NCBI RefSeq assembly: GCF_003334405.1
Contig: NZ_QOWM01000011.1
Source of the DNA: Escherichia coli
Lineage (GTDB): Bacteria > Pseudomonadota > Gammaproteobacteria > Enterobacterales > Enterobacteriaceae
Direction: 5' to 3' (one strand)
DNA: 64,000 nt
The notes below the pieces were generated by a model that saw only the letters and a list, made by a program, of their open reading frames with translations, was not told the origin of the DNA and ran no database searches. Within the stretch, counting starts at the first letter, position 1. Each line of letters begins with the position of its first letter. Below, in pieces: positions 22,222-33,646 of the stretch. Both the position numbers and the translations under genes were made by a program.

Positions 22222-22384
22222 CAGAAAAAAGAGGGTAGCAGCGTTAACTGCTACCCTCGAAGATTGTTACCCAGCGTATTGCGGTTTTCAGGCCCGATGG
22301 GGAACGACCATCAGGCGTATAGTCTGTCCGTGCTACGTAACAATCGAGAGGGCTGGAATTTCCGCCCCTGGTTCTTGTAATTAG
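22222..22384 (-). ncRNA. sroC: SroC-like sRNA from the gltI-gltJ spacer (3' end at intrinsic terminator hairpin)
   Basis: Hairpin gagggtagcag/ctgctaccctc (22231-22258) followed on the minus strand by a T6 run, just upstream of the gltJ start; location matches recalled SroC. Boundaries approximate. Confidence 0.5.
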
Positions 22385-23289
22385 TTCAGTGCCTTGTCAT
22401 TCGGTTCTTTGAACAGTGCTTTCATTTCGTCTGACAGTTCGAAATTCATGTTCAGGTTTTTCGGCGGAATTGGATTTTTGAACCACTTATCAAACCATTT
22501 TTCCGCTTCACCGGAGGTCTGCACCTGAGCGATGGTGTCATCCATCAGCTTTTTGAACTGCGGATCATCTTTACGCAACATACAACCGTAGGCCTCCTGA
22601 GACTGCGGCTTGCCGACGATTTCCCAGTTGTCTGGTTTCTTCGCTTTCGCACGTTCACCGGCCAGCAGAGCGTCATCCATCATAAAGGCAACGGCACGAC
22701 CGCTTTCCAGGGTGCGGAAAGAGTCACCGTGATCTTTGGCGCTGATGATGCGCATATTCATTTTTTGCTCTTCATTCAGTTTGTTGAGCAAAACTTCAGA
22801 GGTAGTGCCGGAAGTGACGACTACGGCTTTGTCTTTCAGGTTGGCAAAATCTTTGATATCGCCACCCTTTTTGGTCAACAGGCGCGTACCGACCACGAAA
22901 ATAGTGTCAGAGAAAGCCGCCTGTTTTTGGCGTTCGACGTTGTTGGTGGTAGAACCACATTCAAAATCGAAAGTGCCGTTTTGCAGCAGTGGAATACGGT
23001 TTTGTGAGGTAATCGGAATCAGTTTTACCTGCAAGTCCGGTTTGTTGAGTTTCTTTTTCACTGCTTCAACAATGGCGTTGGAGTAATCCTGCGAGTAACC
23101 CACCACTTTTTGCTGATTGTCGTAATAAGAGAAAGGCACTGAAGATTCACGGTGACCGACGACAATCACACCGTTTTTGGCGATTTTGTCCAGAGTACTG
23201 CCCGCTGCCGGGGCGGCGTCATCTGCCTGTGCCAGTCCTGCGGAAAGCGCCAGGGCGAGGATTGCTGTGGCAGGTTTACGTAATTGCAT
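22381..23289 (-). CDS. gltI: Glutamate/aspartate periplasmic binding protein
   Basis: ORF track 22381..23364; start placed at internal Met (MQLRKPATAILALALSAGLAQA, signal peptide) giving 302 aa. Confidence 0.9.
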   Translation of the reverse strand: MQLRKPATAILALALSAGLAQADDAAPAAGSTLDKIAKNGVIVVGHRESSVPFSYYDNQQKVVGYSQDYSNAIVEAVKKKLNKPDLQVKLIPITSQNRIPLLQNGTFDFECGSTTNNVERQKQAAFSDTIFVVGTRLLTKKGGDIKDFANLKDKAVVVTSGTTSEVLLNKLNEEQKMNMRIISAKDHGDSFRTLESGRAVAFMMDDALLAGERAKAKKPDNWEIVGKPQSQEAYGCMLRKDDPQFKKLMDDTIAQVQTSGEAEKWFDKWFKNPIPPKNLNMNFELSDEMKALFKEPNDKALN

Positions 23290-29443: not shown

Positions 29444-30619
29444 ATGACAAATCAACCAACGGAAATTGCCATTGTCGGCGGAGGAATGGTCGGCGGCGCA
29501 CTGGCGCTGGGGCTGGCACAGCACGGATTTGCGGTAACGGTGATCGAGCACGCAGAACCAGCGCCGTTTGTCGCTGATAGCCAACCGGACGTGCGGATCT
29601 CGGCGATCAGCGCGGCTTCGGTATCATTGCTTAAAGGGTTAGGGGTCTGGGATGCAGTACAGGCTATGCGTTGCCATCCTTACCGCAGACTGGAAACGTG
29701 GGAGTGGGAAACGGCGCATGTGGTGTTTGACGCCGCTGAACTTAAGCTACCGCTGCTTGGCTATATGGTGGAAAACACTGTCCTGCAACAGGCGTTGTGG
29801 CAGGCGCTGGAAGCGCATCCGAAAGTAACGTTACGTGTGCCAGGCTCGCTGATTGCGCTGCATCGCCATGATGATCTTCAGGAGCTGGAGCTGAAAGGCG
29901 GTGAAGTGATTCGCGCGAAGCTGGTGATTGGTGCCGACGGCGCAAATTCGCAGGTGCGGCAGATGGCGGGAATTGGCGTTCATGCATGGCAGTATGCGCA
30001 GTCGTGCATGTTGATTAGCGTCCAGTGCGAGAACGATCCCGGCGACAGCACCTGGCAGCAATTTACTCCGGACGGACCGCGTGCGTTTCTGCCGTTGTTT
30101 GATAACTGGGCATCGCTGGTGTGGTATGACTCTCCGGCGCGTATTCGCCAGTTGCAGAATATGAATATGGCACAGCTCCAGGCGGAAATCGCGAAGCATT
30201 TCCCGTCGCGTCTGGGTTACGTTACACCGCTTGCCGCTGGTGCGTTTCCGCTGACGCGTCGCCATGCGTTGCAGTACGTGCAGCCAGGGCTTGCGCTGGT
30301 GGGCGATGCCGCGCATACCATCCATCCGCTGGCGGGGCAGGGAGTGAATCTTGGTTATCGTGATGTCGATGCCCTGATTGATGTTCTGGTCAACGCCCGC
30401 AGCTACGGCGAAGCGTGGGCCAGTTATCCTGTCCTCAAGCGTTACCAGATGCGGCGCATGGCGGATAACTTCATTATGCAAAGCGGTATGGATCTGTTTT
30501 ATGCCGGATTCAGCAATAATCTGCCACCACTGCGTTTTATGCGTAATCTCGGGTTAATGGCGGCGGAGCGTGCTGGCGTGTTGAAACGTCAGGCGCTGAA
30601 ATATGCGTTAGGGTTGTAG
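29444..30619 (+). CDS. ubiF: Ubiquinone biosynthesis flavin monooxygenase UbiF
   Basis: ORF track 29438..30619; FAD-binding GGGMVG motif; start placed at MTNQPTEIAIVGGG (391 aa). Confidence 0.92.
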   Translation: MTNQPTEIAIVGGGMVGGALALGLAQHGFAVTVIEHAEPAPFVADSQPDVRISAISAASVSLLKGLGVWDAVQAMRCHPYRRLETWEWETAHVVFDAAELKLPLLGYMVENTVLQQALWQALEAHPKVTLRVPGSLIALHRHDDLQELELKGGEVIRAKLVIGADGANSQVRQMAGIGVHAWQYAQSCMLISVQCENDPGDSTWQQFTPDGPRAFLPLFDNWASLVWYDSPARIRQLQNMNMAQLQAEIAKHFPSRLGYVTPLAAGAFPLTRRHALQYVQPGLALVGDAAHTIHPLAGQGVNLGYRDVDALIDVLVNARSYGEAWASYPVLKRYQMRRMADNFIMQSGMDLFYAGFSNNLPPLRFMRNLGLMAAERAGVLKRQALKYALGL

Positions 30620-30629
30620 CCTTACAACA

Positions 30630-30720
30630 TTGCCGGATGCGTGCCAACCGTAGGTCGGATAAGACGCGGCAGCGTCGCATCCGACATTGAAGGATAAGAC
30701 GTGTCAACATCGCATTCGAC
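30630..30720. repeat. Cluster of REP elements (BIME) downstream of ubiF
   Basis: gccggatgcg..., taggtcggataagacgcg...cgtcgcatccgacat, ...cgcattcgacat palindromic units. Confidence 0.65.
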
Positions 30721-30741
30721 ATTGAATGAACGCAGAAAAGC

Positions 30742-30768
30742 AAAAAGCTCGCCGAAGCGAGCTTTTTT
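30742..30768 (-). terminator. Intrinsic terminator of the tRNA operon
   Basis: Hairpin agctcgc-cgaa-gcgagct (30746-30763) flanked by A and T runs, just downstream of the last tRNA on the minus strand. Confidence 0.6.
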
Positions 30769-30772
30769 AATG

Positions 30773-30847
30773 TGGCTGGGGTACGAGGATTCGAACCTCG
30801 GAATGCCGGAATCAGAATCCGGTGCCTTACCGCTTGGCGATACCCCA
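30773..30847 (-). tRNA. glnV: tRNA-Gln (anticodon CUG); glnV/glnX type
   Basis: 75 nt; revcomp TGGGGTATCGCCAAGCGGTAAGGCACCGGATTCTGATTCCGG...CCCCAGCCA; anticodon loop TTCTGAT. Only one CUG copy present, so glnV versus glnX is ambiguous. Confidence 0.93.
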
Positions 30848-30894
30848 ACAAATTGGTTTTGAATTTGCCGAACATATTCGACACATTCAGAATT

Positions 30895-30971
30895 TGGTGG
30901 CTACGACGGGATTCGAACCTGTGACCCCATCATTATGAGTGATGTGCTCTAACCAACTGAGCTACGTAGCC
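30895..30971 (-). tRNA. metU: tRNA-Met elongator (anticodon CAU)
   Basis: 77 nt; revcomp GGCTACGTAGCTCAGTTGGTTAGAGCACATCACTCATAATGATGGGGTCACAGGTTCGAATCCCGTCGTAGCCACCA. Confidence 0.93.
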
Positions 30972-30986
30972 AGATTGTTTCTTCGA

Positions 30987-31061
30987 TGGCTGGGGTACCT
31001 GGATTCGAACCAGGGAATGCCGGTATCAAAAACCGGTGCCTTACCGCTTGGCGATACCCCA
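30987..31061 (-). tRNA. glnU: tRNA-Gln (anticodon UUG); glnU/glnW type
   Basis: 75 nt; anticodon loop TTTTGAT in revcomp; only one UUG copy present, so glnU versus glnW is ambiguous. Confidence 0.93.
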
Positions 31062-31084
31062 TCCGTACAACGCTTTCTGGTGAA

Positions 31085-31169
31085 TGGTGCGGGAGGCGAG
31101 ACTTGAACTCGCACACCTTGCGGCGCCAGAACCTAAATCTGGTGCGTCTACCAATTTCGCCACTCCCGC
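31085..31169 (-). tRNA. leuW: tRNA-Leu (anticodon UAG)
   Basis: 85 nt with long variable arm; revcomp GCGGGAGTGGCGAAATTGGTAGACGCACCAGATTTAGGTTCTGG... Confidence 0.93.
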
Positions 31170-31178
31170 AAAAAAAGA

Positions 31179-31255
31179 TGGTGGCTACGACGGGATTCGA
31201 ACCTGTGACCCCATCATTATGAGTGATGTGCTCTAACCAACTGAGCTACGTAGCC
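31179..31255 (-). tRNA. metT: tRNA-Met elongator (anticodon CAU)
   Basis: 77 nt; identical in sequence to the tRNA at 30895..30971. Confidence 0.93.
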
Positions 31256-31634
31256 ATCTTTTTTTTCGCGATACCTTATCGGCGTTGCGGGGCGCATTAT
31301 GCGTATAGAGCCTTGCAGCGTCAACCTCTTTTTCAAGGAAAATTGCTCGAAAGTGACTGTTTGGTTAGGTTGCGAACAGCGTGGCGCTATATTCGTCAAT
31401 TATTGTTTACTTTGTGTTTTTTCCCACCCTACAGCCATTCTTTTGTCATACAGGATGAAATTCGGAATTTAACAATAGTGGTGGGAAATTAATCTATGAA
31501 ATACTGGCCTACAGTGATGAGTTGTCAAACAGTGATGTGGCAAACCCGGAACATTTCCTTACTGCATATCAGAATCAACAAGCACCTCAATAACTGAAAC
31601 AGCCCCGGATTTCACCGGGGCTGTTTCGCATTTC

Positions 31635-33299
31635 TTACTTATACGCCGACTGGTGAACACCAACCGCGCGACCAGACGGATCGTCCATTTTCTTGAACGC
31701 TTCATCCCATTCGATCGCTTTAGCGGAAGAACAAGCGACGGAAGGACCGCCCGGCACGCACTCAGCGGCGCTCGGAAGCGGGAATAGTTCTTCAAAGATC
31801 TCCCGATACAAGTACGCTTCTTTAGAGGTTGGCGTGTTGTACGGGAAGCGGAAGCGGGCAGTTTCCAGTTGCTGATCAGAAACCTGCTGCGCAGCCACTT
31901 CTTTCAGGGTGTCGATCCAACTGTAACCGACGCCATCGGAGAACTGCTCTTTCTGCCGCCAGGCCACGCTTGCAGGCAGATACGCTTCAAAACATTCACG
32001 CAGGATGTGTTTTTCCATTTTGCCGTTACCGCACATTTTATCCTGTGGGTTAATACGCATCGCCACATCAAGGAATTTTTTGTCGAGGAACGGAACGCGT
32101 GCTTCCACGCCCCAGGCTGACATCGCTTTGTTGGCACGCGCGCAGTCATACATATGCAGGGCCAGCAGTTTACGCACCGTCTCTTCATGCAGTTCTTTGG
32201 CATTCGGTGCTTTGTGGAAGTAAAGATAACCGCCGAACACTTCATCAGAACCTTCACCGGACAGCACCATTTTAATGCCCATCGCCTTGATCTTACGCGA
32301 CATTAAATACATCGGTGTTGAAGCGCGAATAGTGGTCACATCATAAGTTTCGATGTGGTAAATCACGTCGCGGATGGCATCCAGACCTTCCTGTACAGTG
32401 AAGTGAATTTCGTGATGCACCGTGCCCAGATGGTTTGCCACTTCCTGGGCTGCTTTCAGATCCGGTGAACCCGGCAGACCTACAGCAAAGGAGTGTAACT
32501 GCGGCCACCAGGCTTCAGAGCGTTCCTGATCTTCCACGCGACGGGCTGCGTATTTCTTGGTGATAGCGGAAATAATTGAGGAATCCAGACCACCAGAAAG
32601 CAGCACACCGTAAGGCACATCAGACATCAGATGGCTTTTAACTGAATCTTCCAGTGCCTGACGCAGCTCGTTTTTGTCGGTCACGTTATCTTTCACCGCA
32701 TCGTAGTCGAACCAGTCGCGATGATAGTAAGAACGGATTTCGCCGTCCTGGCTCCACAAATAGCTCCCCGCCGGGAACTCTTTAATCGTGCGGCAAACTG
32801 GCACCAGCGCTTTCATTTCTGAGGCCACATACAGCTGACCGTGTTCGTCATACCCCATATACAGTGGGATGATCCCCAGATGGTCGCGACCAATCAGGTA
32901 GGCATCTTTTTCGCTGTCGTACAGTGCAAAGGCAAACATGCCCTGCAAGTCGTCGAGAAATTCCGGCCCTTTTTCCTGATACAGCGCGAGGATCACTTCA
33001 CAGTCAGACCCGGTCTGGAACTGGTAACGATCGCCATATTCGGCGCGCAATGCCTGGTGGTTGTAGATTTCACCGTTTACCGCCAGTACGTGGGTTTTTT
33101 GTTGGTTGTAGAGAGGTTGCGCCCCCGCGTTAACGTCAACAATTGACAGACGTTCGTGGGCGAGAATGGCGTTATCGCTGGCATAAATACCGGACCAGTC
33201 CGGGCCACGATGACGCATCAGGCGTGACAGCTCGAGGGCTTTCTTACGCAGCTCAACTGCGTCTGTTTTGATATCGAATACGCCAAAAATTGAACACAT
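31635..33299 (-). CDS. asnB: Asparagine synthetase B (glutamine-hydrolysing)
   Basis: ORF track 31635..33380; start placed at internal Met (MCSIFGVFDIK, catalytic Cys2) giving 554 aa. Confidence 0.93.
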   Translation of the reverse strand: MCSIFGVFDIKTDAVELRKKALELSRLMRHRGPDWSGIYASDNAILAHERLSIVDVNAGAQPLYNQQKTHVLAVNGEIYNHQALRAEYGDRYQFQTGSDCEVILALYQEKGPEFLDDLQGMFAFALYDSEKDAYLIGRDHLGIIPLYMGYDEHGQLYVASEMKALVPVCRTIKEFPAGSYLWSQDGEIRSYYHRDWFDYDAVKDNVTDKNELRQALEDSVKSHLMSDVPYGVLLSGGLDSSIISAITKKYAARRVEDQERSEAWWPQLHSFAVGLPGSPDLKAAQEVANHLGTVHHEIHFTVQEGLDAIRDVIYHIETYDVTTIRASTPMYLMSRKIKAMGIKMVLSGEGSDEVFGGYLYFHKAPNAKELHEETVRKLLALHMYDCARANKAMSAWGVEARVPFLDKKFLDVAMRINPQDKMCGNGKMEKHILRECFEAYLPASVAWRQKEQFSDGVGYSWIDTLKEVAAQQVSDQQLETARFRFPYNTPTSKEAYLYREIFEELFPLPSAAECVPGGPSVACSSAKAIEWDEAFKKMDDPSGRAVGVHQSAYK

Positions 33300-33546: not shown

Positions 33547-33646
33547 GCCGGATGCGGCGTGAACGCCTTATCCGGCCTACAAAAGCATGAAAATTCAATA
33601 TATTGCAGGAGCTGCGTAGGCCTGATAAGCGTAGCGCATCAGGCAG
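33547..33646. repeat. Composite REP-spacer-REP element (BIME/RIP-like), copy 1
   Basis: gccggatgcggcgtgaacgccttatccggcctac ... aatatattgcagg ... gtaggcctgataagcgtagcgcatcaggca; inverted orientation relative to copies at 41896 and 49386. Confidence 0.7.

Follow-up and report, generated by a model that had tools for sequence, protein, structure and literature searches.

A five-gene metT tRNA operon in Escherichia coli: assembly collapse is somewhat more likely than recent deletion of tandem tRNA-Gln genes

The tandem tyrT-tyrV (supF) genes are a classical case of instability through unequal exchange. Tandem genes are also found in the metT operon of E. coli K-12, historically the supB-E tRNA operon, for which the MG1655 annotation gives seven genes in the order metT-leuW-glnU-glnW-metU-glnV-glnX. 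Within K-12, glnU is identical in sequence to glnW, glnV to glnX, and metT to metU. This transcription unit is essential and contains all K-12 genes for the Gln(UUG) and Leu(UAG) anticodons (PMC11480407). The K-12 metT transcript is reported to be processed by RNase P, and its terminator to have an inhibitory role (PMC2241853).

Here, we report on a version of this operon with five genes, located in a 64-kb stretch of E. coli DNA that was analysed as a whole and is referred to below as the window. The operon itself, its tandem Gln genes, variation by one tRNA gene copy and deletion between short repeats are already established, and the five-gene sequence is already public. None of the papers searched describes the five-gene metT allele.

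The metT operon of the window and its K-12 counterpart

The window array lies between ubiF and asnB and is transcribed towards ubiF, as judged by collinearity with annotated genomes (Table 1). Over the full 64 kb of the window, ARAGORN identified exactly five tRNA genes; all of them are minus-strand and fall between positions 30773 and 31255, and the Rfam tRNA model returned the same five and no extra one. In the direction of transcription the operon reads Met-Leu(UAG)-Gln(UUG)-Met-Gln(CUG), the spacers measuring 9, 23, 15 and 47 nt. The original prediction, made from the sequence alone, had placed five minus-strand tRNA genes with these spacers between ubiF and asnB, and it is borne out by both programs and by the annotation of near-identical genomes; neither program detected a further tRNA-Gln gene in the interval. 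A sigma-70 promoter upstream of the array and a Rho-independent terminator after the last Gln gene were both predicted, the latter as a hairpin followed by a T run on the correct strand for the operon. The locus is the ordinary metT tRNA operon of E. coli, in which a single promoter and a single terminator bound one polycistronic transcript; its array has five genes, not seven with tandem Gln duplicates.

Table 1. Features of the metT locus in window coordinates. The ubiF and asnB coordinates were transferred from E. coli ECCTRSRTH03, a collinear genome that differs from the window by 6 SNPs in 41 kb
Feature	Position	Strand	Basis	Remarks
tRNA-Met(CAU), elongator	31179..31255	-	ARAGORN and Rfam	First gene, metT equivalent; 77 nt; identical to K-12 metT/metU
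tRNA-Leu(UAG)	31085..31169	-	ARAGORN and Rfam	leuW equivalent; 85 nt; identical to K-12 leuW
tRNA-Gln(UUG), single	30987..31061	-	ARAGORN	K-12 counterpart is the tandem glnU-glnW
tRNA-Met(CAU), elongator	30895..30971	-	ARAGORN and Rfam	metU equivalent
tRNA-Gln(CUG), single	30773..30847	-	ARAGORN	K-12 counterpart is the tandem glnV-glnX
Predicted sigma-70 promoter (TTGACG, 17 nt, CATAAT)	31296..31324	-	Consensus scan, 10/12 matches	
Rho-independent terminator (AAAAAGCTCGC-TTCG-GCGAGCTTTTT)	30742..30767	-	Terminator scan	Matches K-12 downstream of glnX
ubiF, flanking gene	29444..30619	+	ECCTRSRTH03 annotation	
asnB, flanking gene	31635..33299	-	ECCTRSRTH03 annotation	

Outside the operon, nothing unexpected was seen in the window: there is a REP-type tandem repeat of two 35-bp copies that separates ubiF from the operon terminator (30657-30726), the sroC sRNA (22223-22385, minus strand), and a weak match to the ES036 sRNA that is barely above threshold (33581-33623, plus strand).

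The operons of the window and K-12 differ by the missing Gln units and by one spacer SNP. All five tRNA genes of the window are 100% identical to their K-12 counterparts, the 120 nt on either side of the array, promoter and terminator included, are identical, and the four retained spacers match those of K-12 except for one SNP in the 47-nt spacer. At the UUG tandem, one Gln-UUG gene is missing together with the 34-nt glnU-glnW spacer TCTTCTTCGAGTAAGCGGTTCACCGCCCGGTTAT, a total of 109 bp; at the CUG tandem, one Gln-CUG gene is missing together with the 37-nt glnV-glnX spacer ATTTATTCAAGACGCTTACCTTGTAAGTGCACCCAGT, a total of 112 bp, and the window array is 221 bp shorter than that of K-12. The single Gln(UUG) gene is preceded by the 23-nt spacer that precedes glnU in K-12 and followed by the 15-nt spacer that follows glnW, and the single Gln(CUG) gene still has the 47-nt spacer before it and the terminator-side flank after it. 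The Gln genes are identical over 75 bases, and the crossover could lie at any of them.

The seven genes that the original prediction had given for K-12 agree in number and order with the MG1655 annotation, and its observation that each Gln isoacceptor is single in the window corresponds to the loss of exactly one repeat unit per tandem. It had further proposed that homologous recombination between the tandem copies deleted one gene of each kind. The loss of one unit per tandem is in keeping with this proposal; for repeats of 75 bp lying 34-37 bp apart, the route to be expected in the cell is less the classical RecA one than RecA-independent slippage or template switching, or unequal sister exchange (PMC7145654).

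Distribution of reduced alleles and the ancestral state

Junction-spanning queries at each Gln tandem were applied to 5,426 complete E. coli genomes. The glnU-glnW junction was found in 5,359 of these genomes (67 were without it) and the glnV-glnX junction in 5,268 (158 without), and the seven-gene form accounts for about 96% or more of the collection. A 1.3-kb query carrying the five-gene array matched 43 genomes in one place at a coverage of at least 80%; among the 40 of these matches that were listed, 13 records have five genes, 17 have six, and ten have two to four. Two- or three-gene metT operons occur in the records of MC1061 (NZ_CP195014.1), ST648 (NZ_CP008697.1) and IAL7250 (NZ_CM130729.1), and also in HS13-1, GF47, AVS0947 and IPCEC48.

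Four complete genomes, ECCTRSRTH03, FDAARGOS_1077, CEA106S and STK39-3-E, are 100% identical to the window over 1,301 bp, and the NCBI pipeline annotates in each of them the same five tRNAs. Over 41 kb, ECCTRSRTH03 lies 6 SNPs from the window, CEA106S 10, and FDAARGOS_1077 and STK39-3-E about 170. Strain ML35, which has seven genes, lies 5 SNPs from the window over the same 41 kb and is as close as any five-gene genome. No flanking SNP in these 41 kb unites the five-gene genomes against ML35, and at one variable site the window goes with ML35. The five-gene form is not common to close relatives: when a 12-kb locus-anchored query was used to rank genomes by the similarity of their flanks, 58 of the top 60 have seven genes, one has five, and one, JKHS016, has eight. 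For the FDAARGOS_1077 haplotype, the nearest neighbours, namely the other 39 of the top 40 genomes, all have seven genes. Among the 98 genomes with flanks closest to the window or to FDAARGOS_1077 there was no six-gene genome, 97 having seven genes and one eight.

The spacers are informative about where the reduced alleles came from. The window array equals the ML35 array minus two units, with the same retained spacers. The five- and six-gene alleles of ST131 equal the JJ1886 array minus units and have ST131's own spacers, the five-gene allele sharing its ST131-specific features, a T run of 10 nt and a 48-nt spacer, with seven-gene JJ1886. A six-gene allele derived from K-12 retains the K-12 spacer variant. 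Since the spacer variants of every reduced allele are those of the background in which it is found, the alleles arise in place; the five-gene form is neither old nor spread by recombination, and arises repeatedly at the tips of the tree. Within ST131, genomes with five, six and seven genes are 0-2 SNPs apart in 24.6 kb, too few to show a clade; 118UI does not belong to ST131.

A single five-gene allele that arose once and then spread between backgrounds by homologous recombination could account for the identical arrays of the window, ECCTRSRTH03, CEA106S, FDAARGOS_1077 and STK39-3-E, the last two of which sit on flanks about 170 SNPs away. However, these identical arrays also equal the local seven-gene allele minus two units, and the ST131 five-gene and K-12-derived six-gene alleles have the spacers of ST131 and K-12, respectively. 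That the reduced alleles keep the spacers of their own backgrounds largely refutes such a spread, and we regard it as extremely improbable.

Two structural differences were seen around the locus. A 438-nt ORF annotated as a hypothetical protein (WP_000943484.1) lies between the metT promoter region and asnB in ST131 and some other genomes, for example in AVS0543 (L013, 13193-13630) and JJ1886 (L136, 1845-2282), and is absent from the window near 31330-31630 and from K-12-like strains. In CEA106S (L007, 7085-8536), an IS1A element takes the place of the ybeQ-to-hscC segment that is present in the window and ECCTRSRTH03.

The state from which these arrays departed was approached with a pattern scan of one genome per bacterial species, which yielded 120 loci across Enterobacterales, 109 of them with arrays judged complete. 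The seven-gene arrangement is the commonest, at 51 of the 109 species-level arrays, and occurs in Citrobacter, Enterobacter, Kluyvera, Atlantibacter, Klebsiella indica, Pantoea, Erwinia and the E. coli representative. Six-gene forms come second (18 with one CUG copy and 15 with one UUG copy), and eight-gene forms next. The five-gene order was found in only two of the 109 arrays, those of Escherichia whittamii Sa2BVA5 (L088, 83-565) and a Pluralibacter metagenome-assembled genome. A single CUG copy characterizes five Buttiauxella species, five of seven Serratia species and three Chimaeribacter species, and a single UUG copy about seven Erwinia species; these genus-consistent six-gene forms include that of Serratia rubidaea, whose genome is complete. 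Because six-gene forms are consistent at the level of the genus, Gln copy number in the metT operon clearly does change over evolutionary time, and seven genes are the ancestral state from which that change starts. The scan also brought to light unusual gene orders, with Gln(ttg) and Gln(ctg) adjacent in the Tenebrionibacter and Enterobacteriaceae LSJC7 arrays, a Met-Met order in Mixta tenebrionis, and a Gln(ttg) gene placed after the CUG genes in Pantoea sp. 1.19.

The original prediction had also allowed that this lineage never underwent the duplication. A five-gene allele that is old or ancestral, whether because the Gln duplications never took place or because the form identifies a lineage of its own within E. 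coli, would be in line with the two species-level arrays that share the five-gene order, but we consider it very improbable. The seven-gene form is the commonest in Enterobacterales and almost all E. coli genomes have it. Seven genes are also present in dozens of genomes whose flanks hardly differ from those of the window, and in ML35, with the same retained spacers. Moreover, the supporting E. whittamii record is a SPAdes draft at 8.6x coverage, with the same real-or-collapsed ambiguity as the window. The seven-gene relatives with near-identical flanks, ML35 and the shared spacers refute the never-duplicated reading.

Assembly collapse and genuine deletion

The loss of exact single units with the outer spacers kept fits a repeat-mediated deletion, and assembly collapse predicts the same. 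We consider it somewhat more likely that the five-gene state of the window is an assembly collapse of two short tandem repeats than that it is a recent deletion. Each Gln pair is a 75-bp exact repeat around a unique spacer of 34 or 37 bp, which would make a small loop in the assembly graph. If an assembler passed through such loops too few times, both would tend to vanish together, and the strain would really carry seven genes. Collapse, raised in the original prediction only as something to check, is on the population evidence the leading explanation. The main text of the Unicycler paper yielded nothing on loops.

The population evidence begins with the coupling of the two losses. Were they independent, 1.95 genomes would be expected to lack both junctions, compared with 13-20 observed (odds ratio 8.7-16, P from 4e-8 to 1e-15), and independent real events predict about 113 six-gene genomes per five-gene genome. 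The reduced alleles are also unevenly spread over sequencing projects: the AVS, GF, IPCEC and CEA series make up about half of the 40 reduced alleles listed (of 43), and 140 rows sampled evenly from the collection contain none of these series.

Operon versions that lack a tRNA-Gln(UUG) gene are found in the AVS, GF and IPCEC series and in MC1061, ST648, IAL7250 and HS13-1, and most of them are also without tRNA-Leu(UAG). In ST648, the junction search found no UUG gene anywhere in the record. As the operon is essential and is the sole K-12 source of these anticodons, records without tRNA-Gln(UUG) cannot be correct; although classed as ‘complete’ in RefSeq, they must be misassembled at the metT locus. 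The existence of such non-viable records means that collapse at this locus does occur in ‘complete’ RefSeq genomes. We infer that the losses in the window most likely happened in the computer, not in the cell.

Two other tandem arrays show the same kind of loss. The alaW-alaX (K-12 2518041-2518231) and glyV-X-Y (K-12 4392360-4392658) tandems resemble the Gln pairs in having identical genes of approximately 76 bp, 35-39 bp apart, and in losing exact units; they differ in locus and amino acid, and their one-copy alleles fall partly in the same assemblies. A one-copy alaWX allele is present in 133 of the 5,426 complete genomes (names were taken from the 60 of the 133 that were listed) and a one-copy glyVXY allele in 15. 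The latter comprise six genomes of the TUM series, two Stanford laboratory strains (MC1061 and OV2) and one O104:H4 strain, 2011C-3493, among others, and their distribution looks project-dependent. Several assemblies are short at more than one array: MC1061 combines a two-gene metT operon with one alaWX and one glyVXY copy, HS13-1 combines a two-gene metT operon with one glyVXY copy, and OV2, PapRG-04-4 and TUM2820 each have one alaWX and one glyVXY copy. The overlap of the glycine and alanine one-copy alleles has a P value of about 3e-5. Under independence, 0.05 genomes would be expected to be single at glnUW, glnVX and alaWX together; ECCTRSRTH03, the closest five-gene relative of the window, has a single alaWX copy.

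Recent deletion in the cell, by slipped misalignment, template switching or unequal sister-chromatid exchange between the 75-bp Gln genes, is the main rival reading, which we hold to be less probable than collapse; it would make the reduced alleles recurrent, and rare through weak selection for translation capacity. Besides the exact units lost and outer spacers retained, deletion is supported by the spacer variants that each reduced allele shares with its own background. RecA-independent deletion between close direct repeats of less than 200 bp is well documented in E. coli (PMC7145654), strains of the species have been reported to differ by plus or minus one tRNA gene copy (PMC4539685), and altered tRNA copy numbers are tolerated (PMC11480407). 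Between genera, Gln copy number shows fixed differences, in accordance with real change, and the five-gene form, which retains all four anticodons, would be viable. FDAARGOS_1077, one of the five-gene records, is an FDA-ARGOS reference-grade assembly. A reciprocal eight-gene allele exists in JKHS016 (NZ_CP147059.1; L011, 526-1338), where three Gln(UUG) genes stand in tandem and the 34-nt spacer recurs without any change. It may be either the reciprocal product of unequal exchange or an assembler's miscount of the loop, and is equally explicable as the second.

The other tandem arrays also furnish arguments for deletion. Not every array of ECCTRSRTH03 is collapsed: the valU-X-Y triple, whose spacers are as short as those of the Gln pairs, is intact, which argues against a blanket k-mer collapse in this assembly and keeps genuine deletion alive. 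Its lysT-valT-lysW-valZ-lysY-lysZ-lysQ operon is intact as well, but has spacers of 130-150 nt; closer repeats are the more prone to slippage and to assembler errors alike, so that this operon says little for either reading. For the similar alaWX tandem, four or five separately deposited records of EDL933/ATCC 43894 all agree on one copy, as do other O157:H7 strains, which suggests a genuine heritable loss in this lineage. The list of one-copy alaWX genomes mixes O157:H7 strains with obviously collapsed assemblies such as MC1061.

Against genuine deletion at the metT locus, double losses stand 7-10 times above independence, six-gene intermediates are missing from the backgrounds concerned, nothing points to inheritance within a clade, and the reduced alleles cluster by project beside alleles that are non-viable. 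The coupling could in principle come from selection on tRNA-Gln dosage or from one template switch across the 700-bp array. In the latter case, the five-gene form would be real and recurrent, each event removing a unit at both tandems, and natural lineages would live at half the tRNA-Gln dosage, at a low frequency set by mutation-selection balance; we think this unlikely. Assembly collapse remains our preferred reading of the window.

Implications and comparison with known systems

Under collapse or deletion alike, the promoter would drive one polycistronic precursor ending at the terminator, and the five-gene state is ordinary and matters little for biology. If the allele is real, gene dosage would be halved for both tRNA-Gln species and unchanged for tRNA-Met and tRNA-Leu(UAG), and an anticodon suppressor of the supE/supB type would come at the cost of the only wild-type copy. 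The suggestion in the original prediction that tRNA-Gln copy number bears on the supE/supB suppressor loci and on codon-usage balance would be reasonable. The eLife paper on translational redundancy does not mention the Gln genes.

The consequences are greater for the use of genome collections. For each small tandem tRNA array that we examined, roughly 1-3% of ‘complete’ E. coli assemblies are short, whether miscounted or genuinely variable, and a few are without essential tRNA genes altogether. Because arrays are short in some ‘complete’ assemblies, tRNA gene counts drawn from assemblies should be verified against reads before they enter analyses of codon usage or of how tRNA genes evolve.

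Of the described systems, RecA-independent deletion between short repeats in E. coli (PMC7145654) resembles the window in the repeat length of less than 200 bp, the close spacing and the loss of one unit. Those deletions were measured in the laboratory, whereas the event in the window is deduced from an assembled sequence and may not be cellular. The K-12 metT operon is like that of the window in position, promoter, terminator and gene order, and differs in having two copies of each Gln gene where the window has one.
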